The notes under the pieces were generated by a model. It searched no databases. It saw only the letters and a program-made list of their open reading frames with translations, and was not told the DNA's origin. Position numbers and translations under genes: made by a program. A DNA stretch of 25,598 nucleotides. Origin: a virus. Lineage: Duplodnaviria; Heunggongvirae; Uroviricota; Caudoviricetes. Below are positions 1 to 13,202 of this stretch, piece after piece; the stretch's first letter is position 1, and each line of letters opens with the position of its first letter. The stretch lies in IMG/VR virus record IMGVR_UViG_2778261153_000008. One strand, written 5' to 3'.

Positions 1-1053
1 TTACGGGGTAATGCCAACCGCTGCCGCCACTTTGTCGCCACTTGGCAGCGTTGCCAGAGGATTGAAACGGAGCGCCGTTTCCAGATGATCCGGTGCCAGA
101 TGTGCGTAACGCATAGTCATTTTTATATCGTGGTGTCCGAGAATTTTTTGTAAGGCCAGAATGTTTCCACCCGACATCATGAAGTGCGCCGCAAACGTAT
201 GGCGCAGAACGTGTGTGAGTTGACCGCGAGGGAGCACGATAGACGTTTTTTCCATCACGGATAAAAATTGAAAATAGCAGTCTGTGAAGAAATTGAACCC
301 ATCAAGCGCCATGATCTCTTCGTAAAGCTCTTTACTGATAGGGATGCTTCTGTTTTTCTTCCCCTTCGTTCTGACAAAGGTAATTCGGTATTTGGTCACC
401 TGTGAGCGAGTAAGATTTACGGCTTCACGCCAGCGTGCGCCTGTGCTTAAGCATATCTTAACTACCAGTGCCAGAATTGGGTCCTGACGTTTGCAATCAG
501 CCAGCAATTCAACAATCTGCTCATGGGTAAGCCATGCCATCTCTTTTTCTGCGATGGTGAATTTTCGCATGTTCTCCAGTGGGTTCGGATACGACCATTC
601 GCCCAGACGGGATAGTTCGCTAAAAACACTACTTAGATAGCTTTGCTCCAGGTTAATGGTGACCGGGCTTGCTCCTTTCTTCCATTTCTCGCTGAAGTAG
701 ATCTCGCCTGTCAGGCGTTTATCTCGATAGTGGGCAAACATTTTAGAGGTGAGATCGGTTGCAAGAGGATTGCCCAGAGCGTCAACCATCAACAGCAATT
801 TGTCATAGACATGCTGCCCAGCTGTCAGAGATTTACCATGTAGTTTGAACCATAGTTCAACCACGTCTTTCAGTGTTCGACGATCCACTGATTCACCCAG
901 CCAGGGCTTTGCTTCGGTTTCTTCCATCGTGTGACGCTCAAAAGCCAGAGCTTCGCCTTTGGTGGCGAATTGTTTACGCACACGACGTCCACTACGTCCG
1001 GCGGGGTAACATTCGCAAAGCCATTTTCCTGTGGTGAGTTTTCGTACTGCCAT
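1..1053 (-). CDS. int: Phage integrase, tyrosine recombinase (P2/186 family)
   Basis: 350-aa ORF; C-terminal tyrosine-recombinase signature (LRHTFAAHF ... GHHDIKMTMRYAHL); sits at prophage end beside the immunity region; stop codon at window positions 1-3 so the gene appears complete. Confidence 0.9.
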   Translation of the reverse strand: MAVRKLTTGKWLCECYPAGRSGRRVRKQFATKGEALAFERHTMEETEAKPWLGESVDRRTLKDVVELWFKLHGKSLTAGQHVYDKLLLMVDALGNPLATDLTSKMFAHYRDKRLTGEIYFSEKWKKGASPVTINLEQSYLSSVFSELSRLGEWSYPNPLENMRKFTIAEKEMAWLTHEQIVELLADCKRQDPILALVVKICLSTGARWREAVNLTRSQVTKYRITFVRTKGKKNRSIPISKELYEEIMALDGFNFFTDCYFQFLSVMEKTSIVLPRGQLTHVLRHTFAAHFMMSGGNILALQKILGHHDIKMTMRYAHLAPDHLETALRFNPLATLPSGDKVAAAVGITP

Positions 1054-1136: not shown

Positions 1137-2813
1137 CTAAGCAACATGCAGTTCATCGTTGGCGGAAGTTGCTGCTTTGCGCTCTTGCTCAATCGCCAGT
1201 GACTCTCTATATTCTTTCGCTTCCGCAAACATTGTCCATTGTGCGTTGATGTTCATATCTTCAATAACAGACTTAATTTCTTTAATATTTACGTTGAAAA
1301 ACTCTTTTCGTGAGTTAATTTTATTGACCTGTTTTTCGTTGAAGACTTTATGCAGATGATTTTCTAATGATGGTGCATCATCACTATAAATCATCGCATG
1401 AACATCGAACGAAAAAGGAACACTAGCATCACCGAGTTCACGAACACGATCAAGTGGTTCAAGGCGGCGTGTCATTCCAATTTTATATACATCTTCGCCA
1501 AATGAGCCAATATTACTAATTATATAAACGTGGCCTGATCTAGTTTGTTGAGCCATAGAAATAGCTCGTTGGTTTTTAGCTTCAGCTTCTTCATATTTTA
1601 ACTGTAGTTCAGCTATTTTTTGCTCTAAAGCTAAGCGTTGTTCTTCATTTGCAAGCATAAGCTCTTTTGTTGCTTTATTTATAGCTTGCTGAATAGCTTT
1701 CTCTTCTTTTTCAGCTTCTTTTATCGCTTTTTCATACTCCCTACGAGCTCTTTCCTCTTCACGAAGTTGTTCTTTAATCCTTCTTTGCTCTTCTTTTTCT
1801 TCGAGCATAATTTCATTAACTGCAACTCCCCATTTTAGCTCGTTGAGTCGAGCTTGAAGATAGATGTCACTTATTTTTGCGGACCTAAAGGCAGAACCAT
1901 TGTAATTTACAAGTTGAAACGCATCTTTTATCTCTTGGGAAAGTTTTCCAAAATTGTTGTGTTTGACTTTTGATAAAATACTGTCAACTCTTCCATTGAA
2001 GGCATCTAAAACAAAGTTGATAGCAGTATTACGCCTGTTTTGTTCGACATAATCACACGAAGCAGCTTTATTAGTTTTTATTAATGATTTTGTTAACTCC
2101 CTGGCTTTTTGTAATTCCTTACCTGCATCTGTAAACTCATAATTTTCTGCCAATTCATCGAGAACGCTACGGTTAGGGATGATCCATTCATCACCATAAC
2201 CTTCAATTTTATTTTTCATTGATTTGGCAACTGCTTCATATTTTTCTGCAAACTCTTTAGCTTCATATGCTGAACCAGCAATCTCTTTTGCTCTTTCTTC
2301 TGCATCGGAAATAATTTTCACTGCATTGTCATTAGCATTTGAGATCAGCTCATTTGCTTTACTATTGGCATTATCAAGACGTTCTTTAGCTTTCAGGCGT
2401 GCATCGCGAGCGTCTTTAGTAATTGCTATAGCTTCGCTATTAGCGTTGCTTATTTTTATCTGAGCTTGATAATTTGCTTCGTTTACTGTCTTAGCAGCCT
2501 TTATTTGGGCTTCTTCTATTTTTTGCCTGGCTATTGAGTCTGCATTTTTTATCTTATTCTCTGCTTCCATCACTGCGCTGTGCAATTCTACGTATTGCCA
2601 TAATGGCGCAGCTCGTCCTTCAAGCTCTGATAGATCTCGTACAGTCTGTGCTAATTCTTCTTGATTTTCTTTCAGTTGGTTGGAAAGGGCTATGTTGTTA
2701 GCTGTCAAGGTATTTATAGCCGCTTTATGTTTTTTGCTTTGCTTAAATAATATTACAGCTAGAATGGGGGCGAGAAATGCTAATAAGAATATAACGATGG
2801 AAAATGAATTCAT
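1137..2813 (-). CDS. Membrane-anchored coiled-coil protein with C-terminal T5orf172/MUG113 (GIY-YIG-like) nuclease domain; DUF4041-like architecture; cargo gene
   Basis: 558 aa. N-terminal hydrophobic helix (FSIVIFLLAFLAPILAVILF), long K/E/A-rich low-complexity middle region predicted coiled coil, C-terminal block GHVYIISNIGSFGEDVYKIGMTRRLEPLDRVRELGDASVPFSF...EFF matching the recalled T5orf172 consensus. Strongly AT-rich versus phage backbone. Start 20 nt downstream of cI stop, SD AAGGA; co-oriented with cI and int. Confidence 0.75.
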   Translation of the reverse strand: MNSFSIVIFLLAFLAPILAVILFKQSKKHKAAINTLTANNIALSNQLKENQEELAQTVRDLSELEGRAAPLWQYVELHSAVMEAENKIKNADSIARQKIEEAQIKAAKTVNEANYQAQIKISNANSEAIAITKDARDARLKAKERLDNANSKANELISNANDNAVKIISDAEERAKEIAGSAYEAKEFAEKYEAVAKSMKNKIEGYGDEWIIPNRSVLDELAENYEFTDAGKELQKARELTKSLIKTNKAASCDYVEQNRRNTAINFVLDAFNGRVDSILSKVKHNNFGKLSQEIKDAFQLVNYNGSAFRSAKISDIYLQARLNELKWGVAVNEIMLEEKEEQRRIKEQLREEERARREYEKAIKEAEKEEKAIQQAINKATKELMLANEEQRLALEQKIAELQLKYEEAEAKNQRAISMAQQTRSGHVYIISNIGSFGEDVYKIGMTRRLEPLDRVRELGDASVPFSFDVHAMIYSDDAPSLENHLHKVFNEKQVNKINSRKEFFNVNIKEIKSVIEDMNINAQWTMFAEAKEYRESLAIEQERKAATSANDELHVA

Positions 2814-2833: not shown

Positions 2834-3430
2834 TTAATTTGAAACTATTGTACTTCTTATACAAGCAACTACTTCAATATCAGAAAATGCACATTCAAAG
2901 CTATTCTCTGTACTTGTAATTTTAATCATACCTTTTGGAAGCTTTGTGATTTTTCGAATGGAATAGGTTCCGTCGATGTTGATTAACCAGTGCCCATCAA
3001 GTACTTCAGAAAATTTTTGATCACAAATGTATGTGACGAGCCCATCCTGAATAACAATTGGTGATGAAAGATTTGCAGGAAGAAATGATGAATCGAAGAC
3101 ATATGAACCATCTTCAATCATTTTGCCTGCGGTAAGGCGAAACTTGGCAAGCTCTTCTGTAGCTGCTGTCAGCGAGCTTTGCTTAAGGCCTTGCCCGGTG
3201 GTTAACCATTTCAGTGAGGTTCCTGTTTCAAGAGCACATTGGATTATCCAGTCTGCAGGAAACGTATCCCGCAAATACCTGTTCGCCAGAGTGCTTTTTG
3301 ATACTTCCAAGTGATCAGCTAAAGCCTGTCGTGTCGTAAAGCCATAAGCTTCGACTAATCGCTCAATCGCAGCCTTACCACCTTTATTGGGATTTATTTT
3401 GATCTCATTTGGGTACTTTGATGTTGACAT
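2834..3430 (-). CDS. cI: Immunity repressor, phage 186 CI-like
   Basis: 198-aa ORF divergent from apl/cII; N-terminal HTH-like region (AYGFTTRQALADHLEVSKSTLANRYLR); size and position match 186 CI (about 190 aa). Start codon overlaps the -35 of the rightward promoter. Confidence 0.8.
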   Translation of the reverse strand: MSTSKYPNEIKINPNKGGKAAIERLVEAYGFTTRQALADHLEVSKSTLANRYLRDTFPADWIIQCALETGTSLKWLTTGQGLKQSSLTAATEELAKFRLTAGKMIEDGSYVFDSSFLPANLSSPIVIQDGLVTYICDQKFSEVLDGHWLINIDGTYSIRKITKLPKGMIKITSTENSFECAFSDIEVVACIRSTIVSN

Positions 3431-3477
3431 ATCTCTTTTGCGATCCTAGTATCAATTTTGTCCCCATTTGGGTACTT
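3406..3477. repeat. Two perfect 13-bp direct repeats CATTTGGGTACTT flanking the early promoter; candidate CI or Apl operator sites
   Basis: Copies at 3406-3418 and 3465-3477, 59 bp apart, bracketing the TTGACA/TAGTAT promoter; a degenerate third copy (TATTGGGAT) lies near 3385-3393. Confidence 0.45.
3424..3452 (+). promoter_or_regulatory. Putative early lytic promoter (pR-like) for apl/cII operon
   Basis: TTGACA (3424-3429), 17-bp spacer, TAGTAT (3447-3452); correctly placed about 70 bp upstream of the apl start codon in the cI-apl divergent region. Confidence 0.55.
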
Positions 3478-3525
3478 GTCACGATTACTACAGGCTCACC
3501 ACAAGCCAATAGGAGATGTTGCATC

Positions 3526-3747
3526 ATGACCCCTAACATTTCAATAACTCTGAATACGCCACATGTCACAATTGAGCGTTATAGCGAACTTACTGGTCTT
3601 TCTATCGACACCATCAACGATATGCTGGCTGATGGTCGCATCCCTCGCCATCGCCTTCGGAAAGACAAGAAAAGAGAAAAGGTAATGATCAACCTTGCTG
3701 CTCTTACCGTTGATGCACTTACTGATTGCAATGTTGTATTCAACTAG
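3526..3747 (+). CDS. apl: Excisionase/transcriptional regulator, Apl/Cox-like
   Basis: 73-aa product from ATG 3526 preceded by SD AGGAG (3511-3515); first rightward gene opposite cI; HTH-like segment [21 protein letters not shown]. The ORF-track start at 3409 is an upstream extension with no SD and overlaps cI. Confidence 0.7.
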
Positions 3748-3779
3748 TTCCATTTTGGGATACATCAGGGGTGTCGACT

Positions 3780-4289
3780 ATGTTTGATTACCAAGTTTCC
3801 AAACATCCACATTTTGACGAAGCCTGTCGTGCATTCGCACTGCGCCACAACCTGGTGCAACTGGCAGAACGTGCAGGCATGAATGTACAGATTCTGCGGA
3901 ACAAGCTGAACCCAGCTCAACCTCATTTATTAACCGCACCAGAAATCTGGTTGCTTACCGATCTGACTGAAGATTCAACGCTGGTAGATGGCTTTCTGGC
4001 ACAGATTCACTGCCTGCCATGTGTACCGATTAATGAGGTGGCAAAAGAGAAACTGCCGCATTATGTCATGAGTGCAACTGCAGAGATCGGGCGTGTTGCT
4101 GCAGGTGCGGTATCCGGCGATGTAAAAACCAGTGCAGGTCGTCGTGATGCTATCAGCAGCATTAACTCTGTAACACGGCTGATGGCGCTGGCCGCTGTTT
4201 CATTGCAGGCCCGTTTACAGGCTAATCCTGCGATGGCGAGTGCAGTTGATACCGTTACTGGCCTCGGTGCTTCATTCGGTTTGCTGTGA
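3780..4289 (+). CDS. cII: CII-like transcriptional activator (phage 186 CII family)
   Basis: 169-aa product from ATG 3780 ([19 protein letters not shown]...); size and position after apl match 186 CII; recalled sequence similarity. Confidence 0.7.
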
Positions 4290-4296
4290 GGTGCTT

Positions 4297-4497
4297 ATGC
4301 TTACGAAAGAACCATCATTTGCATCGCTGCTGGTTAAACAAAGCCCGGCAATGCACTACGGTCACGGCTGGATCATGGGTGAGGATGGTAAACGCTGGCA
4401 TCCGTGCCGTTCACAAGATGAATTGCTGGCAGAACTATCTACGAAAAAACGGGGGAACAAATGGCTATTGAAGGCGCTGCGGCGACTGTTCCATTAA
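4297..4497 (+). CDS. Small early protein, hypothetical (possibly Fil-like)
   Basis: 66-aa product from ATG 4297 with SD GAGGTG (4288-4293); in 186 the gene after cII is fil, but I cannot verify similarity. Confidence 0.45.
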   Translation: MLTKEPSFASLLVKQSPAMHYGHGWIMGEDGKRWHPCRSQDELLAELSTKKRGNKWLLKALRRLFH

Positions 4498-4802
4498 GCC
4501 CCGGTGAACGCCTGAATGGACTTAATCATATTGCGGAGTTAAGGGCGAAAGTTTTTGGTCTTAATATTGAGTCAGAGCTTGAGCGGTTTATTAAAGATAT
4601 GCGTGATCCACGGGATATTAATAGCGAACAAAATAAACGGGCACTGGCTGCCATATTCTTTATGGCAAAAATTCCAGCTGAACGTCATAGCATCAGCATT
4701 AATGAGCTGACCACTGACGAAAAGCGGGAGTTGATTAAAGCAATGAATCATTTTCGTGCAGTGGTGAGCTTATTTCCCAGACGGTTAACCATGCCGAATT
4801 AA
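4461..4802 (+). CDS. Hypothetical early protein
   Basis: 113-aa ORF, SD GGGGGA 5 nt upstream of ATG 4461; overlaps the preceding ORF by 37 nt; embedded in the early operon. Confidence 0.5.
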   Translation: MAIEGAAATVPLSPGERLNGLNHIAELRAKVFGLNIESELERFIKDMRDPRDINSEQNKRALAAIFFMAKIPAERHSISINELTTDEKRELIKAMNHFRAVVSLFPRRLTMPN

Positions 4803-4869
4803 CCAACTAATGAAATTAATGGCGTAAACCCGCCGGGCATCCCTTTATCTAAATTCAGGAGAATTGATT

Positions 4870-5103
4870 ATGCGTAATATTGAAACCCTCACGACTAAAA
4901 CCGGACCGGATGACGCAGGGCTTAATATTTTACTGACAGAGGCTCGTCTGGAAGAACGCCGGGCAAGGGCTGAAGCAATGGCAGCTCGCCTTGATAGTCT
5001 GGCGTGTCATATTACATCCCGCCAGCTAAACCACGTCGAAGCGGCAGAACTGCTGCGTGTGACTGCTGAAGCAATCCAGAACGAAGCGCAGGAGATCCAC
5101 TAA
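4870..5103 (+). CDS. Hypothetical early protein
   Basis: ATG 4870 with SD AGGAG (4857-4861); 77 aa, charged/helical; stop overlaps the next gene start (TAATG). Confidence 0.5.
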   Translation: MRNIETLTTKTGPDDAGLNILLTEARLEERRARAEAMAARLDSLACHITSRQLNHVEAAELLRVTAEAIQNEAQEIH

Positions 5104-5330
5104 TGGCTGATGCAATGGATCTCGTACAGCAGCGCGTTGAAGAAGAACGCCAGCGCCATATCCGTGCTGCCCGTGCCAAAACACCGGGCGTGTCACGCGT
5201 ACTTTGCATTGAATGTGAAGCGCCAATTCCGCCAGCACGACGCCGCGCCATTCCGGGAGTGCAGCTTTGCATTACCTGTCAGGAAATCGCAGAACTGAAA
5301 GGCAAACATTACAACGGAGGTGCTGTATGA
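5103..5330 (+). CDS. TraR/DksA-family C4 zinc-finger protein
   Basis: 75 aa with CxxC-(17)-CxxC pattern (CIECEAP...CITCQE), typical of small phage TraR/DksA-like zinc fingers; translationally coupled to flanking genes. Confidence 0.7.
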   Translation: MADAMDLVQQRVEEERQRHIRAARAKTPGVSRVLCIECEAPIPPARRRAIPGVQLCITCQEIAELKGKHYNGGAV

Positions 5331-6175
5331 GCACCATCTTGAAATGGGCGGGAAATAAAACGGCCATTATGGCAGAACTGAAAAAATACCTTCCTGCTGG
5401 CCCGCGACTGGTTGAACCTTTCGCGGGTTCCTGTGCAGTGATGATGGAGACGGATTACCCCAGCTATCTTGTTGCGGATATTAATCCTGATTTAATCAAC
5501 CTCTATAAAAAGGTTGCCGCTGATTGTGAATCGTTTATATCTCGCGCCAGAGTTTTATTTGAGAACGCAAACAGGGAGATGGCTTATTACAACATAAGGC
5601 AGGAGTTTAATTACTCAACTGAAATTACTGATTTCATGAAAGCAGTATATTTCCTGTATCTCAATCGTCACGGTTACCGTGGTTTATGTCGCTATAACAA
5701 GAGCGGGCATTTCAACATTCCCTACGGTAATTATAAAAATCCGTATTTCCCTGAAAAAGAAATTCGTGCATTTGCAGAAAAAGCCCAGCGGGCAACATTT
5801 ATCTGCGCCAGCTTCGATGAAACGCTGGCAATGTTGCACGCGGGGGATGTTGTGTATTGCGATCCGCCTTATGACGGTACGTTTTCCGGTTATCACACTG
5901 ACGGCTTCACTGAAGATGACCAGTATCACCTGGCATCCGTTCTTGAACATCGGTCATCAGAAGGACATCCGGTCATTGTTTCTAACAGTGACACATCCCT
6001 GATCCGCTCGCTGTATCGCAATTTCACTCACCACTACATCAAGGCAAAACGCAGCATTGGCGTGTCAGCTGGCGAGAGTAAATCTGCAACAGAAATCATT
6101 GCCACCAAATCAGCTGGGTGGTTTGGTGTCGATTTTGCCAGCGGCTCTGACCGTACCGTTGAGGTACGCGCATGA
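5327..6175 (+). CDS. dam: DNA adenine methyltransferase (Dam-like, N6-adenine MTase)
   Basis: ATG 5327 (overlaps preceding stop as ATGA); N-terminal AdoMet motif (KWAGNK ... EPFAGSCAV) and catalytic DPPY motif ([11 protein letters not shown]). Confidence 0.85.
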
Positions 6176-7182
6176 ATGCTATCGATCCGCGTTGCTTTGC
6201 CTCAGGCACCATTAACGTCATCACTACTTCTGGTGGCAAAGATAGTCTCGCTCAATGGCTAAGAGCCATTGAAAACGATGTTCCGCATATTTCTGTATTT
6301 GCCGATACGGGTCATGAACATCCACAGACAATAGAATATCTGGATTATCTGGAATCAAAGCTGGGCAAGATTATTCGCGTCAAAGCGGATTTCACACGCC
6401 AGATAGAAGGGAAACGTAAATTCATTGCGGAAAAGTGGACCATTTCTCTCGTTGAGGAATGTGGTATGTCGACAGATGAGGCTGAGGAACGTATTTACCG
6501 GGCACTGGAAATCCTTAAACCAACCGGCGTTCCGTTTCTTGATTTGTGCATGTGGAAAGGTCGCTTCCCTTCAACAAAAGCTCGTTTCTGCACTTTTGAA
6601 CTGAAACATGAACCAATACGTACACAGGTAATCGATCCAGCTCTGGATGAATACGATGAGGTAATCAGTTGGCAAGGAGTCCGGGGGCAGGAATCACCGG
6701 AACGTGCATTGTTGCCTGAGTGGGAGGACGATGCAGACAATACTCTGGGGCTGCATGTTTATCGTCCGATCCTTAATTGGCTGCATGAGGATGTGTTTGC
6801 TATTGCCAAACGTCATGGCATTAAGCCTAACCCCCTTTATATGCAGGGATGCAGTCGTGTCGGTTGTATGCCATGCATTCATGCTCGCAAGTCAGAACTT
6901 GGAGAGATTTTCCAACGCTGGCCAGAAGAAATCCGCCGAGTGGCTGAGTGGGAAAGACTGGTTGCGGAATGTTCAAGACGTGGCAATTCAACGTTCTTTC
7001 CATCCACGCATGATCCGCGCCGTGCTGAAAAACGGATCGAAGTCATAACTGTTGATGCTTATGGCATTGAAACTTATCGGGACTGGGCCTTAACGACTCG
7101 GGGCGGTATGCAGTTTGACCTGCTGGCAGGCATGAATGATAAAGCGGTGTGCAGCAGTGTATATGCAGGAGTCTGTGAGTGA
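6172..7182 (+). CDS. PP-loop ATP pyrophosphatase, phosphoadenosine-phosphosulfate (PAPS) reductase-like family protein
   Basis: 336 aa; PP-loop motif SGGKDS near N-terminus; C-terminal cysteine cluster (CSRVGCMPC); start overlaps dam stop (ATGA), stop overlaps gene A start. Confidence 0.65.
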
Positions 7183-9620
7183 CAGAGATCAGCACAGGCC
7201 GTCTTGCCGATCCATTTGTCAGTGTAACTTCCGGTAGCATTGAGAATTCTGCCGGGGGTTATTCGTGGAATTTACCTAAGAAAGCCATTAACCCTTATCT
7301 GGACCCGGCGGAAGTTGCGCCGGTTTCTGCGCTTTCAAACCTGATCACTCTGTACGCTACCGATAACGAGCAGGAACAACTGCGCCGCGAGGCACTGAGT
7401 GATCAGGTCTGGGAGCGTTATTTCTTTAATGAATCCCGTGATCCTGTCCAGCGCGAAATGGAGCAGGATAAGCTCATTAGCCGGGCAAAGTTGGCGCATG
7501 AGCAGCAGCGTTTTAACCCGGACATGGTCATTCTGGCAGACGTCAGCGCCCAGCCCTCCCATATCAGCAAGCCGCTGATGCAACGTATTGAATACTTCAG
7601 CAGCCTGGGCAGGCCAAAGGCTTATTCCCGCTATTTACGTGAGACGATTAAGCCATGTCTGGAACGACTGGAGCATGTACGCGACAGCCAGCTATCTGCA
7701 TCTTTTCGTTTTATGGCAAGCCATGTAGGGCTGGACGACCTGCTGATTCTGCCTGAAATGAGTCAGGATCAGGTGAAACGCCTGTCTACCCTTGTCGCTG
7801 CGCATATGAGCATGTGCCTTGATGCAGCTTGTGGTGATTTGTATGCCACCGATGACGTTAAGCCAGAAGAAATCCGCAAGACATGGGAAAAGGTGGCAGC
7901 GGAAACCCTGCGTCTGGATGTCATCCCGCCTGCGTTTGAGCAACTCCGCCGGAAAAGAAACCGCCGTAAACCCGTGCCCTATGAACTCATTCCGGGTTCG
8001 CTGGCGCGTATGTTGTGCGCCGACTGGTGGTACCGGAAATTATGGAAGATGCGTTGCGAATGGCGGGAAGAGCAGTTGCGTGCTGTCTGCCTGGTCAGCA
8101 AAAAAGCATCTCCCTATGTCAGCTATGAAGCCGTGATGCATAAACGTGAGCAGCGCCGTAAGTCGCTGGAGTTTTTTCGTTCTCATGAACTGGTGAACGA
8201 AGACGGCGACACGCTGGACATGGAGGATGTGGTAAACGCCAGCAGCAGCAACCCTGCGCATCGCCGCAATGAGATGATGGCCTGTGTTAAAGGCCTGGAG
8301 CTTATCGCGGAAATGCGTGGTGACTGCGCCGTTTTCTACACCATTACCTGTCCGTCACGTTTCCATTCCACGCTCAATAACGGCAGACCAAACCCAACCT
8401 GGACAAATGCGACGGTAAGACAAAGCAGCGATTATCTGGTCGGCATGTTTGCTGCATTTCGTAAGGCGATGCACAAAGCCGGGTTGCGCTGGTATGGCGT
8501 GCGGGTGGCTGAGCCGCATCATGACGGTACGGTTCACTGGCACCTGTTGTGTTTCATGCGCAAAAAAGACCGCCGTGCCATTACTGCATTGTTGCGTAAG
8601 TTTGCCATCCGTGAAGACCGCGAGGAACTGGGTAATAACACTGGTCCACGCTTTAAATCTGAGCTGATAAACCCGCGCAAAGGAACACCGACAAGCTACA
8701 TCGCGAAATACATTAGTAAGAACATTGACGGGCGTGGTCTGGCTGGCGAGATCAGCAAGGAAACGGGTAAATCCCTGCGTGATAACGCTGAATACGTTAA
8801 TGCCTGGGCGTCTCTGCATCGTGTTCAGCAATTCCGCTTCTTTGGTATTCCGGGGCGTCAGGCTTACCGTGAACTGCGATTGCTGGCTGGTCAGGCGGCA
8901 AGGCAACAGGGCGACAAAAAAGCAGGTGCGCCGGTACTGGATAACCCGCGCCTTGATGCCATCCTGGCTGCTGCTGATGCTGGTTGTTTTGCCACTTACA
9001 TCATGAAGCAGGGTGGTGTACTGGTTCCCCGCAAATATCACCTCATCAGAACTGCTTATGAAATTAACGAAGAGCCGACCGCCTATGGCGATCACGGCAT
9101 TCGTATTTATGGCATCTGGTCACCCATTGCAGAGGGCAAGATCTGCACTCATGCAGTGAAGTGGAAAATGGTTCGTAAAGCCGTTGACGTTCAGGAGGCG
9201 GTAGCCGACCAGGGCGCTTGCGCCCCTTGGACTCGTGGCAATAACTGTCCCCTTGCTGAAAATTTGAACCAACAGGAGAAAGATAAATCAGCTGATGGGG
9301 ACCCCAGAACGGACATTACCCGCATGGATGACAAGGTGTTGCACGATTACCTGCACAGTATGAACAAAAAGGAGCGCCGGGAACTGGCTGCAAGGTTACG
9401 TCTGGTGAAACCGAAACGGCGTAGAGACTACAAACAGCGAATTACAGACCATCAACGACAGCATCTCGTCTATGAACTGAAATCCAGAGGATTTGATGGC
9501 AGCGAGAAAGAGGTCGATTTACTCCTTCGCGGCGGCAGTATTCCGTCAGGAGCAGGCCTGCGTATCTTCTATCGGAACCAGCGTTTGCAGGAAGATGATA
9601 AGTGGCGGAACCTGTATTAA
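7179..9620 (+). CDS. A: Replication initiation protein (P2 gpA-like rolling-circle endonuclease)
   Basis: 813 aa, GTG start with SD AGGAG (7167-7171); HUH-type motif ([12 protein letters not shown]) and downstream tyrosine motif ([10 protein letters not shown]); large early gene in the position of P2 gene A. Confidence 0.85.
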
Positions 9621-10260: not shown

Positions 10261-10293
10261 AGGCGATGTCAATCAGATATCGCCTTGTTTTTT
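10261..10293 (+). terminator. Intrinsic terminator/attenuator-like hairpin
   Basis: A-GGCGAT (10261-10267) pairs with ATCGCC-T (10279-10285), 11-nt loop, followed by TTGTTTTTTG; lies after the DinI-like gene and 27 nt before the lipoprotein start. Confidence 0.45.
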
Positions 10294-10319
10294 GTCAAGA
10301 AAAGAATAATAGGCTAAAA

Positions 10320-10997
10320 ATGAAAATTAATAATGTAGCGTTACCAATATCTCTTGCTGTAATCCTAACTGGTTGCGTGCCACATGCTTCTAACCGAAAT
10401 ATCACTGCTATTGAAGTGGTGAAGCCTGCTATTGGGCAAAGTGCTACCGCCTACATGGGCGATCCCATTATCACATCTGCTACTGGATTTAAAACGGACG
10501 TACTAGAACTTGGTGCGGCTAATGGTGCATTGTCTTCTATCGCTGCTGGTACATATTGCAGTGAGGGGAATGGAATTTACCGCAATTATCATAACCCTCA
10601 AGCTGTTGCGTTAAAAAATCTCTATGGGCAAATCGGTAACTATGTTGATTATGTTAGTTACGATGCTGCAAAAAATGAGATATCACCGCCAAATGGTACT
10701 TCTTATACTGCATCAGAAATTTCTATCAAACGTGTTCCTGATGGGCTGTGTCGAGTTAGTAACTCATTGGTTAAGACTATCGAATACAATGGAAATGCAG
10801 GCGGTGTAATGAAGTTCACCTATCGTGAATTTGCAAACGATATGGCTCGTGCAGCATTTACAACAGATTTTTCTGTAGATTCTAAGGGAAGTGACGTTAT
10901 CGCTTACAAAGGTGCCAAGTTCAAAGTGAACAAGGCTGATAACTCGTCTATTTCTTATACAATTATTTCTGGCTTTGACAAGGCTGTCACGTTCTAG
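10320..10997 (+). CDS. Lipoprotein, function unknown (cargo/moron)
   Basis: Product begins MKINNVALPISLAVILTGC: basic N-terminus, hydrophobic core, lipobox LTGC. Remainder Gly/Ser/Asn/Tyr-rich beta-type sequence. AT-rich relative to backbone. The ORF-track start at 10266 would add 18 non-signal residues and overlaps the hairpin. Confidence 0.7.
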   Translation: MKINNVALPISLAVILTGCVPHASNRNITAIEVVKPAIGQSATAYMGDPIITSATGFKTDVLELGAANGALSSIAAGTYCSEGNGIYRNYHNPQAVALKNLYGQIGNYVDYVSYDAAKNEISPPNGTSYTASEISIKRVPDGLCRVSNSLVKTIEYNGNAGGVMKFTYREFANDMARAAFTTDFSVDSKGSDVIAYKGAKFKVNKADNSSISYTIISGFDKAVTF

Positions 10998-11483: not shown

Positions 11484-13202
11484 ATGCATCCTGTTTTAAA
11501 CAGATATATTCAAGATTTAGCGAGTACACTTGATATAGCAGAAGAGCAAGATAAGTTATTTGAATATTTTTGCAATTTTGTTGTTACATCCAAAAATTAT
11601 CTTGGCCGATTTAATCCTGTCGACATTACGACTCAAGAAGATGATGCATCAATTGATGGCTTGGCGGTTCTAATAGATAGTGAGATCATACTTACCCAAG
11701 AGGACGCTATTGCTGCTTTCGAAAGTCACAAATCGTCATTGCCTGTAGAACTTTTGGTTATTCAAGCTAAATCAGGAGAAACCTTCCGGAAAGATAAAAT
11801 AGCTAATTTTAATTTGGGGTTGCAGGATTTATTCAGTTTGGACCCGAAACTACCTAATGGAAAGTACAATAAAGAAATTATAAAAATATTAAGTGTTATC
11901 ATCGATAATTTGAGAAAAGTCAAGAATAAACTTCCTGATATAAAGGTTTATTTTTGCACAAGCGGTGTCTATTCAAAAGAAAGAGAAATAGAAGCTTCTT
12001 TTAAGATTATTGAAGAAACTTGTAAAGGGGCAGATCTGTTTGGTGAAGTTGAGGTTAGCCCATTAGGTCGTAGCGAACTAATGAAATTGTGGCGCTCAAT
12101 AACCGAAAAAAATGAGGCTACTTTAGAGTTCATAAATTTCATGGGCATCAATGAAATGCCTGGAATTCCTCAAGCATATATTACAACAATAAAAGCTAAG
12201 GAGTTTATTGAAAAAGTTGCGATGGATGAAGATCGCAAAATTCGAGAGGAGGTATTTGATGAAAATGTACGAGCATTTTTAGGTGAAGACAATCCTGTTA
12301 ATAAGGATATTACTAAAACCTTGCAATCTGAAAAATCGAATCAATTCGCTGTGCTAAACAATGGCGTGACCATCATTGCTCCTGAGGTAACCCTCACCCC
12401 AAGTAAAAAAACTATACACATAGCTAATTATCAGATCATTAACGGTTGCCAAACTACCAATACACTATTCAATAACTTTGGAATATTAACGGATGCGACT
12501 GAACTCGTTGTTAAGTTTATACAATCTAGCGAGGTTGATGTCGCAATTGACATTGTAACTGCTACCAATAATCAATCCAAAGTGGAGAGTTCTAGCTTTT
12601 ATGCGTTGAGAGAAAAGTCTAGGATGATACATAAATTTTTTGAAATACAACGGGATGTTGAAGGCAGGGAACACCTTTATTTTGAAAGAAGAGAAGGTGA
12701 GTATCGTGGTAAATCTATCAAAACTACAAAAATATATGACATTGTTGAATTGGCAAGGTGTTTCTTATCTGTATTCAAACAGAGGCCACACAATGCCGCT
12801 ATGTATGTGAAAAAAGTATTAAATGAAAGTAAGGATATATGTTATTTAGATACTGATAACGAATATGCATATTACACAGCAGCTTATATTTGTTATAAAT
12901 ACAGCACGTTGATTAATGGTCGTAAAGCTAATGCTAAGAAATATAATAAGCTACGTTGGCATATTGCTATGCTTTATCCTTGGGTTGTGAGCAAAAGTAT
13001 GGATGTTCCTGCGCCCAATTCAGGAAAGATAACTCCTTTTTGTAATAATATCATGAAAACATTGACAACTGATGAATACGTGGAGAATTTCAAAGAATGT
13101 CAAAAAATAATTGATAAACTTCCATTCCCTACAGATGACCAGATCAAACGAGGAAAATACACCAGCGATCTGAGAACGATGGCAGCAGAACATTTTAAAT
13201 AA
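11484..13202 (+). CDS. Hypothetical 572-aa protein; candidate single-gene anti-phage defence/abortive-infection protein (family unverified, possibly AIPR-like)
   Basis: Long uninterrupted ORF with SD GGAG 6 nt before ATG; very AT-rich compared with flanking packaging genes; own AT-rich upstream region; followed by strong hairpin terminator. No Walker A motif; conserved-looking block ANYQIINGCQTTNT; located between cos and portal gene. Confidence 0.6.
   Translation: MHPVLNRYIQDLASTLDIAEEQDKLFEYFCNFVVTSKNYLGRFNPVDITTQEDDASIDGLAVLIDSEIILTQEDAIAAFESHKSSLPVELLVIQAKSGETFRKDKIANFNLGLQDLFSLDPKLPNGKYNKEIIKILSVIIDNLRKVKNKLPDIKVYFCTSGVYSKEREIEASFKIIEETCKGADLFGEVEVSPLGRSELMKLWRSITEKNEATLEFINFMGINEMPGIPQAYITTIKAKEFIEKVAMDEDRKIREEVFDENVRAFLGEDNPVNKDITKTLQSEKSNQFAVLNNGVTIIAPEVTLTPSKKTIHIANYQIINGCQTTNTLFNNFGILTDATELVVKFIQSSEVDVAIDIVTATNNQSKVESSSFYALREKSRMIHKFFEIQRDVEGREHLYFERREGEYRGKSIKTTKIYDIVELARCFLSVFKQRPHNAAMYVKKVLNESKDICYLDTDNEYAYYTAAYICYKYSTLINGRKANAKKYNKLRWHIAMLYPWVVSKSMDVPAPNSGKITPFCNNIMKTLTTDEYVENFKECQKIIDKLPFPTDDQIKRGKYTSDLRTMAAEHFK

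Follow-up and report, generated by a model that had tools for sequence, protein, structure and literature searches.

The closest described relative of the gene considered here is orf84 of phage 186. The phage 186 record gives Orf84 (CP84, NP_052288) as a non-essential protein of unknown function, and it adds that orf84 apparently has to be translated to its end for A to be translated and that a terminator lies just inside A, where it would be expected to act if A is not translated. We found no functional study of phage 186 orf84 in the literature, in agreement with an initial annotation of the DNA described here, which held that the role of this gene in P2/186 phages is not established. This DNA, referred to as the window, is the whole 25,598-nucleotide stretch of the Caudoviricetes record IMGVR_UViG_2778261153_000008 (IMG/VR). 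It contains an orf84 homolog, hereafter the PAPS-like gene, which encodes a 336-amino-acid (aa) protein of the 3'-phosphoadenosine-5'-phosphosulfate (PAPS) reductase superfamily and lies between genes for a Dam-family DNA methyltransferase and the replication nickase gpA.

Known DNA phosphorothioation requires, at minimum, a PAPS-domain protein and a P-loop ATPase, with a DNA-recognition partner encoded adjacently. The PAPS-domain proteins SspD, DndC, and BrxP share with the window protein the PAPS_reduct fold, a canonical PP-loop, cysteines suggesting an Fe-S cluster, and a DNA-related context, but the window gene is solitary and phage-borne rather than located in a defense island. Vibrio crassostreae phages that infect a Dnd-carrying host encode a 479-aa protein, p0018, in which an N-terminal PAPS domain (aa 4 to 175) is fused to a 178-aa Dam-type domain, and a two-gene segment including this PAPS-Dam fusion conferred full plating on the Dnd+ host when moved into a sensitive phage (Piel et al. 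2022; bioRxiv 10.1101/2021.05.05.442762). A 2026 Nucleic Acids Research paper, which cites Piel et al., treats phage PAPS reductases in Aca-controlled operons as anti-defense candidates. Earlier papers on prophages interpreted the gene as a sulfate-assimilation moron (Burkholderia prophage copies) or as an auxiliary metabolic gene.

The window locus is a real but ordinary mosaic cassette, and its PAPS-like gene is a further member of a known, uncharacterized phage gene family in a common slot. The gene itself has been known since phage 186 was sequenced, and the coupling recorded for 186 and the Vibrio anti-Dnd precedent were already known as well. New here are the sequence-based separation of the protein from CysH and DndC, the correspondence in an alignment between its CxxC pair and the APS (adenosine-5'-phosphosulfate) reductase Fe-S site, a quantified association of the gene with methyltransferases of several classes, and the independent assortment of Dam and the PAPS-like gene in E. 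coli prophages. We favor, at a probability of roughly one half, the interpretation that the window holds the early lytic operon of a 186/Fels-2-like P2-family prophage of E. coli in which the Orf84-type enzyme would be an ATP-using counter-defense gene directed at DNA or at phosphorothioate (PT)-based immunity.

An Orf84 homolog upstream of A in a 186/Fels-2-type prophage

Gene order and domain matches show the layout of a 186/Fels-2-type P2-family prophage. The rightward early operon runs in the order CII/CP76, DUF5347, DUF2732, TraR/DksA zinc finger, Dam, PAPS_reduct protein, and gpA. The features of this region that bear on the PAPS-like gene are as follows.

4864-5103, plus strand: DUF2732 gene, first of the chained early genes (PF10809, 3.2e-29)
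5103-5330, plus strand: TraR/DksA-type C4 zinc finger (PF01258, 3.1e-11; TIGR02419, 65.8 bits against a cut-off of 59.7; phrog_54)
5327-6175, plus strand, ATG start: orphan Dam-family N6-adenine DNA methyltransferase, 282 aa (PF02086, 5.1e-76; PADLOC orphan methyltransferase, 2.3e-110)
6103-7261, plus strand: mosaic segment comprising the last ~24 dam codons, the whole PAPS-like gene, and the first ~27 A codons
6172-7182, plus strand: PAPS_reduct-superfamily protein of the phage 186 Orf84 family, 336 aa (PF01507, 2.4e-33)
6229-6246, plus strand: PP-loop SGGKDS, residues 20 to 25, an ATP pyrophosphatase signature conserved in homologs
6865-6876, plus strand: C232-x-x-C235 (GCMPC), putative [4Fe-4S] ligand pair, invariant and aligned with the APS reductase CxxC
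7150-7176, plus strand: C-terminal tail CSSVYAGVC with invariant C327 and C335, modeled at low confidence and probably flexible (pLDDT <50 at residues 311 to 330)
7179-9620, plus strand, GTG start: gpA rolling-circle replication nickase (PF05840, 1.5e-127, residues 197 to 519; phrog_91)

The 336-aa protein is a homolog of phage 186 Orf84, with 80.5% identity over 333 residues (residues 4 to 336 by tblastn) and matches to phrog_15238 (6e-85) and phrog_424 (6.8e-82). The two proteins are of the same length, and both genes stand in the same type of operon directly upstream of A with a 4-nucleotide (nt) overlap. A comes directly after the gene in 57 of the 80 closest viral loci. They differ in what precedes them: in 186, orf84 follows an exonuclease-subunit-like gene and the DUF5405 gene (orf83) rather than dam. 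The window TraR/DksA gene is likewise a homolog of the phage 186 DksA-like zinc-finger gene. Over positions 5000 to 7400, the window and a prophage of E. coli OkiPb01677 share 99.7% identity.

The Dam protein has a D12-class domain with a DPPY motif (CDPPYDG) and passes TIGR00571 (321.8 bits against a cut-off of 114.85) but scores below the cut-off for the E. coli Dam equivalog (287.9 against 441). Its specificity is predicted to be GATC. Counts of GATC and of GAAC/GTTC across the window were unremarkable.

Classification of the PAPS-like protein outside the CysH and DndC families

We compared the PAPS-like protein with curated hidden Markov models (HMMs) for the reductases and defense proteins that share its domain. 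It fell short of every cut-off for assimilatory CysH (NF002537, 63.9 against 154; TIGR00434, 37.2 against 165.1; TIGR02057, 36.5 against 254.2 bits), for assimilatory APS reductase (TIGR02055, 48 against 235.3 bits), and for DndC (TIGR03183, 17.2 against 290.4 bits), and the PADLOC DndC models reached 3e-6 at best. The best defense-model match was SspD (PDLC02782, 4.5e-23, 80.4 bits), for which the best stretch covered residues 126 to 264 only and the PADLOC library carries no curated cut-off; BrxP followed at 5.6e-12 and DndC at 3e-6. The initial annotation had likened the protein to DndC-type enzymes, a likeness that does not hold, as the protein is not DndC and is nearer SspD by HMM and nearer APS reductase by fold. 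The HMM classification that it had proposed as a check placed the protein in neither CysH nor DndC, and the clear homology to a sulfate-assimilation enzyme that it had named as evidence to the contrary was not found, given scores below the CysH and APS reductase cut-offs and a DNA-related context.

These scores bear directly on the interpretation that the gene is a genuine assimilatory PAPS/APS reductase (cysH), an auxiliary metabolic gene boosting host sulfate assimilation, as it is labeled in several records and virome papers. The PF01507 match, best solved-structure matches to CysH and APS reductases, the 'cysH' annotation in record OU784746, and the sulfate-assimilation reading of Burkholderia prophage copies are all consistent with this idea. 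However, besides lying far under all curated cut-offs, the protein has a canonical SGGKDS and an extra insert and C-terminal extension, and its gene sits in a replication/early module with methyltransferases enriched beside it. The C-terminal catalytic cysteine tail of CysH is of the ECGLH type, and the C terminus of the 336-aa protein lacks such a reductase-like tail; an ECGM at residues 96 to 99 falls in a non-conserved insert. We therefore consider an assimilatory role highly improbable.

Invariant motifs and predicted fold

SGGKDS occupies the first strand-helix turn of the PAPS-like protein, the place of the SGGxDS of PP-loop ATP pyrophosphatases, and this activity is predicted from the motif. 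S20, G22, K23, D24, and S25 are invariant in eight diverse phage homologs (44 to 80% identity), which also have a DTG motif in common, and the full SGGKDS is invariant in 36 enterobacterial homologs. In contrast, the aligned solved reductases have a degenerate SSSFG or SFSGAED at this site. Six cysteines (C126, C140, C232, C235, C327, and C335) are invariant in the same eight phage homologs. The description of the protein in the initial annotation as a PP-loop, cysteine-rich member of the PAPS-reductase superfamily thus stands.

In the family profile alignment, GCMPC (C232 and C235) corresponds to GCEPC of Pseudomonas aeruginosa APS reductase (2goy) and GCAPC of the Mycobacterium tuberculosis enzyme (7lhr), the CxxC of the APS reductase [4Fe-4S] site. 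From this shared GC-x-PC, the protein probably binds a [4Fe-4S] cluster. Its identity to APS reductase and CysH is only 17 to 21%, and, relative to solved reductases, it has an extra helical insert of ~65 residues (approximately residues 75 to 130) and a 100-residue C-terminal extension that contains two further invariant cysteines.

The AF2 model had a mean pLDDT of 78.8, with a confident core and poor values at residues 270 to 298 and 311 to 330. The underlying alignment was shallow (36 sequences, mostly 73 to 89% identical), because a second, profile-based protein search returned nearly the same enterobacterial proteins as the first; this profile search revealed no diversity of domain architecture among protein homologs. 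Fold searches of PDB and BFVD returned generic PAPS reductase, TtuA, and QueC neighbors, with no solved DndC or SspD among the matches, and literature follow-up of a weak PDB match named PptA found nothing. Long open reading frames (ORFs; 396 to 537 aa) among viral homologs contained no fused methyltransferase domain, and their extensions are possibly artifacts of the start-codon rule. The family comprises 339 clusters at 50% identity (E<=1e-30). Compared with 186 orf84, non-synonymous divergence (pN) was 0.125 with synonymous sites saturated, and the gene is therefore under purifying selection. We conclude that the protein belongs to a separate family of predicted sulfur-handling enzymes of the ATP-pyrophosphatase type, probably with an Fe-S cluster, and is not a sulfate-assimilation reductase.

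A PP-loop together with Fe-S cysteines is also the architecture of tRNA thiolases, and an RNA-directed enzyme similar to TtcA, TtuA, or NcsA could thiolate host or phage tRNA to tune lytic translation. We view this alternative as quite unlikely, since the protein resembles APS reductase and SspD more than it does tRNA thiolases, no RNA-binding domain was recognized in its 336 residues, and the recurrent neighbors of its gene encode DNA methyltransferases, ParB, DnaB, and replication initiators.

Overlapping junctions and coupling into A

The coordinates and overlap junctions given in the initial annotation are exact in the sequence. DUF2732 and the TraR-like gene meet at TAATG (5101-5105), the TraR-like gene and dam at ATGA (5327-5330), dam and the PAPS-like gene at ATGA (6172-6175), with these two ORFs in different frames, and the PAPS-like gene and A at GTGA (7179-7182). 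Four genes had been counted in this chain. The overlaps are real, but because TAATG is the junction between DUF2732 and the TraR-like gene, the chain includes DUF2732 and contains five genes. Shine-Dalgarno-like motifs lie 6 to 7 nt before the starts of dam (GGAGG, 5316-5320), the PAPS-like gene (GAGG, 6161-6164), and A (AGGAG, 7167-7171).

In the 99.7% identical OkiPb01677 prophage, the RefSeq start of gpA is an ATT 60 nt downstream (7239, compared with 7179 in the window; 7440, compared with 7380, in the retrieved stretch). We regard GTG 7179 as the real start of A because it is the sole canonical in-frame start, has AGGAG upstream, and matches the 4-nt overlaps annotated in 186 and P2-type prophages; the RefSeq ATT is probably a start-site mis-call.

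With ORFs called from the first in-frame start, the PAPS-like ORF overlaps A in 55 of 57 P2-like viral loci, by exactly 4 nt in 35. Phages in which dam is followed by A without a PAPS-like gene are likewise joined by ATGA. The stop/start overlaps are thus conserved yet ordinary for this operon. The tightly coupled expression suggested earlier agrees with the overlaps seen here, but coupling into A is not new, since the 186 record already ties A translation to orf84 translation. Such overlaps would link the accessory genes and A by translational coupling into a single unit, in which the occupant of the slot, whichever gene it is, would deliver ribosomes to the A start.

These considerations raise the possibility that the PAPS-like gene serves mainly as a regulatory or structural element without DNA chemistry: the ORF could be retained as a leader for the translation of A, or the protein could co-activate prophage genes in the manner of IbrA. 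IbrA, which is PAPS-reductase-like, and IbrB, which is ParB-like, activate the prophage eib genes. The dependence of A on orf84 translation in the 186 record, together with the terminator just inside A, fits a leader role, but Dam alone fills this role in most relatives. Furthermore, the catalytic motifs are invariant at 44% identity, in phages without gpA, and purifying selection is strong, which makes a purely regulatory function improbable.

Independent assortment of Dam and the PAPS-like gene in E. coli prophages

We surveyed 5,426 complete E. coli genomes with a 2.4-kb query and found part of it in 1,257 genomes and the full Dam-PAPS-A stretch in 24. The PAPS-like gene was present in 68 genomes, as the window allele in 24 and as an allele of 72 to 74% identity in 44. 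Among four copies of the divergent allele that were sampled, three lay upstream of A, after DUF5405, in P2-type prophages without a phage Dam, and one of these three was frameshifted; the fourth was a pseudogene beside ParM, between A and the portal gene. Neither these sampled P2-type prophages with the gene upstream of A nor 186 has a methyltransferase in the early operon.

Conversely, Cartapus, RE2010, and many Klebsiella prophages, the nearest phages with Dam, have dam followed directly by A. Fels-2, RE2010, and Cartapus have ~96% nucleotide identity to the window over DUF2732, the TraR-like gene, most of dam, and A, with Dam coupled by ATGA, but they lack the 1.16-kb segment at 6103-7261. 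Homology to Cartapus stops at ~6102, inside the dam 3' end, and resumes at ~7262, inside A. These breaks inside dam and A indicate that the PAPS-like gene arrived as a 1.16-kb mosaic segment with both couplings kept.

Dam and the PAPS-like gene therefore occur independently of each other in the P2-like prophages of E. coli. A variable slot separates the TraR-like gene from A; here it holds two independent accessory genes. The initial annotation had paired the two as a possible module, and this pairing is not fixed: 44 of the 68 E. coli genomes carry the other allele, the three copies sampled upstream of A and 186 are without a phage Dam, and relatives run directly from dam to A. The data do not support an obligate partnership with Dam.

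At 6103-6128 (plus strand), inside the dam 3' end and exactly at the homology break with the phages that lack the segment, a hairpin with a 10-bp stem precedes a T-rich run; the promoter and terminator scan of positions 4300 to 7700 as a whole returned matches at chance level. DUF5405 (186 CP83/Orf83) precedes the PAPS-like gene both in 186 (3726-4001 of the retrieved stretch) and in P2-type prophages. In Vibrio phage 1.047.O, a short PAPS-reductase-family gene is preceded, at a distance of three genes, by a CP83-annotated gene (344-637 of the retrieved stretch). DUF5405 could be a second recurrent companion of the gene.

Methyltransferases of three classes beside the gene across viral loci

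To cover phages beyond E. coli, 240 viral loci were fetched with three differently ordered query alignments, and the 196 loci with a PAPS-like ORF were reduced to 81 clusters at 80% identity. Apart from gpA, seven of the ten most widespread neighbor families were DNA methyltransferases, spanning three unrelated classes (D12 N6-adenine, C5-cytosine, and N6_N4). A methyltransferase occurred immediately adjacent to the gene in 19 of the 81 clusters, within two genes in 28, and within three genes in 32. Per-position frequencies were 13 to 16% at positions -2, -1, and +1, compared with ~1.5% at five or more genes away (odds ratio, 10.9; p = 1e-9). Since the methyltransferase seeds came from near neighbors, we repeated the count with Pfam alone and found 14 methyltransferases in 150 immediate neighbors; in the Pfam-only control of 135 ORFs at distances of 5 to 8 genes, no methyltransferase was among the 25 families listed of 37 matched. 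The DNA-related context proposed in the initial annotation is thus supported by an approximately 10-fold enrichment of three methyltransferase classes beside the gene in non-redundant viral loci.

Individual loci illustrate this association. In phiE125, a Cfr9I-like methylase overlaps the PAPS-like gene and a ParB-like gene then follows; Rivra has methyltransferases on both sides, and S1, Parlo, and Alfacinha1 each have one methyltransferase near the gene. Other neighbors included ParB-HTH, DnaB, a SNF2-type helicase, and replication genes, with Mom and DUF3850 found once each; Mom adjoins the PAPS-like gene, and DUF3850 flanks it, each in one viral locus. ASCH/PUA-like genes also occur elsewhere near the gene, as DUF3850 in the matched Dam/PAPS stretch of E. 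coli 2012C-4502 and as an ASCH gene in Parlo (5155-5583 of the retrieved stretch).

The same data bear on whether Dam and the PAPS-like enzyme form an obligate two-component module, in essence the initial reading, in which Dam or an adjacent methyltransferase supplies recognition, the PAPS-like enzyme adds a second mark, and the two act as one anti-restriction enzyme. Consistent with a module, 34 of the 80 closest viral loci have Dam as the gene immediately before the PAPS-like gene, dam and the PAPS-like gene share a 4-nt stop/start overlap in the window, overlaps of this type occur in 12 of the 15 clusters in which a methyltransferase of any of the three classes precedes the gene, and the two domains are fused in Vibrio phages. 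In opposition, ~60% of non-redundant loci have no recognized methyltransferase within three genes, and the independent assortment described above extends to 186 and three sampled P2-type prophages without a methyltransferase in the early operon, to the 44 E. coli genomes with the divergent allele, and to the close relatives with dam next to A. These observations weaken the module without eliminating it, because host Dam could substitute in E. coli, and we judge it unlikely.

A possible counter-defense function

Considering its canonical ATP-pyrophosphatase PP-loop, the Orf84-type protein would be an adenine-nucleotide alpha-hydrolase in which an APS-reductase-like cysteine set probably binds [4Fe-4S] and a two-cysteine tail is flexible. 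Conversion of ATP to AMP and pyrophosphate would activate a substrate; most likely the enzyme would then pass sulfur to replicating phage DNA or modify such DNA in another way, but it may instead interfere with host phosphorothioate-based restriction. Either way, it would be a counter-defense gene, like the methyltransferases it tends to adjoin, and its expression would be early, alongside that of Dam and the replication nickase. A counter-defense DNA-modification role is likely on this evidence.

The anti-restriction idea in the initial annotation has a published precedent in the Vibrio PAPS-Dam fusion with anti-Dnd activity and, for the same reason, is not new. Both cases combine a phage PAPS-reductase domain with an adenine methylase, but p0018 is one polypeptide, whereas the window has two ORFs, of which Dam is D12-class. 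A tblastn search for p0018 with a short Vibrio-phage PAPS protein recovered only unfused relatives (14E30.2) and a weak ParB_N/PAPS fusion in Methanoculleus virus Blf4. The latter, a 414-aa protein (1242-2486 of the retrieved stretch) labeled 'DNA modification methylase', joins a weak ParB_N match (19.5 bits, below cut-off) to PAPS_reduct and echoes the ParB-like genes that adjoin the family in phiE125 and occur close to it in Riah.

Several observations weigh against a counter-defense enzyme. The window operon, with DUF2732, TraR, Dam, the PAPS-like protein, and gpA only, includes no DndD/SspC/BrxC ATPase and no DndE/SspB/DUF4007 partner. The Fe-S assignment is based on alignment alone, and p0018, compared here by its description, is a fusion with a shorter PAPS domain whose transferred segment held a second gene. 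Methyltransferase adjacency could reflect shared early or anti-restriction islands and not shared chemistry. In the 186 record, Orf84 is known solely as non-essential. The gene is also dispensable, because, of the four copies of the divergent allele sampled in E. coli, two are pseudogenes, one with an internal stop and one with a frameshift (2998-3954 and 2948-3956 in the retrieved stretches).

A more far-reaching proposal is that the Orf84 family is a self-sufficient, single-protein DNA sulfur-modification enzyme that would generate a phosphorothioate or thio-base by way of host IscS, without a DndD/SspC-type ATPase, and would take its site specificity from a co-encoded or host methyltransferase (here Dam, GATC). 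We consider this rather unlikely, but, if true, self-sufficient sulfur modification would provide temperate phages with a portable second epigenetic mark that defeats PT- or methylation-sensing restriction.

Solitary PAPS-reductase-like genes are widespread on mobile elements and are routinely mislabeled as 'cysH' auxiliary metabolic genes. Knowing the role of the 186 Orf84 family would correct this annotation, would account for the traveling of these genes with DNA methyltransferases, and would probably add an enzymatic counter-defense mechanism against phosphorothioate-based or other restriction. The question is directly testable, since phage 186 is amenable to genetics and can do without the gene.

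We also observed a distant solitary member on the IncC plasmid pRM049_1, a 371-aa PAPS-reductase-family gene (4494-5609 of the retrieved stretch; 28.7% identity over ~130 residues) located two genes from a replication initiator gene; in this single example viewed, no methyltransferase is annotated beside it. Weak matches (E<=0.1) were found in 1,549 plasmid records, of which 1,141 are conjugative.

Other genes of the window

Outside the early operon, the window contains a leftward region with the integrase and repressor and, downstream of A, a DinI/Tum-like gene, an AbiU-like gene, and the portal gene. The features assigned in these regions are as follows.

1-1053, minus strand: integrase
1137-2813, minus strand: PD-Lambda-1-like defense gene, 558 aa, between the integrase and the CI repressor (DUF4041 and T5orf172/MUG113; PADLOC PD-Lambda-1, 4.7e-120)
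2834-3430, minus strand: CI repressor
11484-13202, plus strand: AIPR protein, 572 aa, in the variable region between gpA/DinI and the portal gene (PF10592; PADLOC AbiU, 9.3e-107)

Adjoining the AbiU-like gene is an ORF of 243 aa (10266-10997, plus strand), which has no Pfam or PADLOC match and a lipoprotein-like N terminus.

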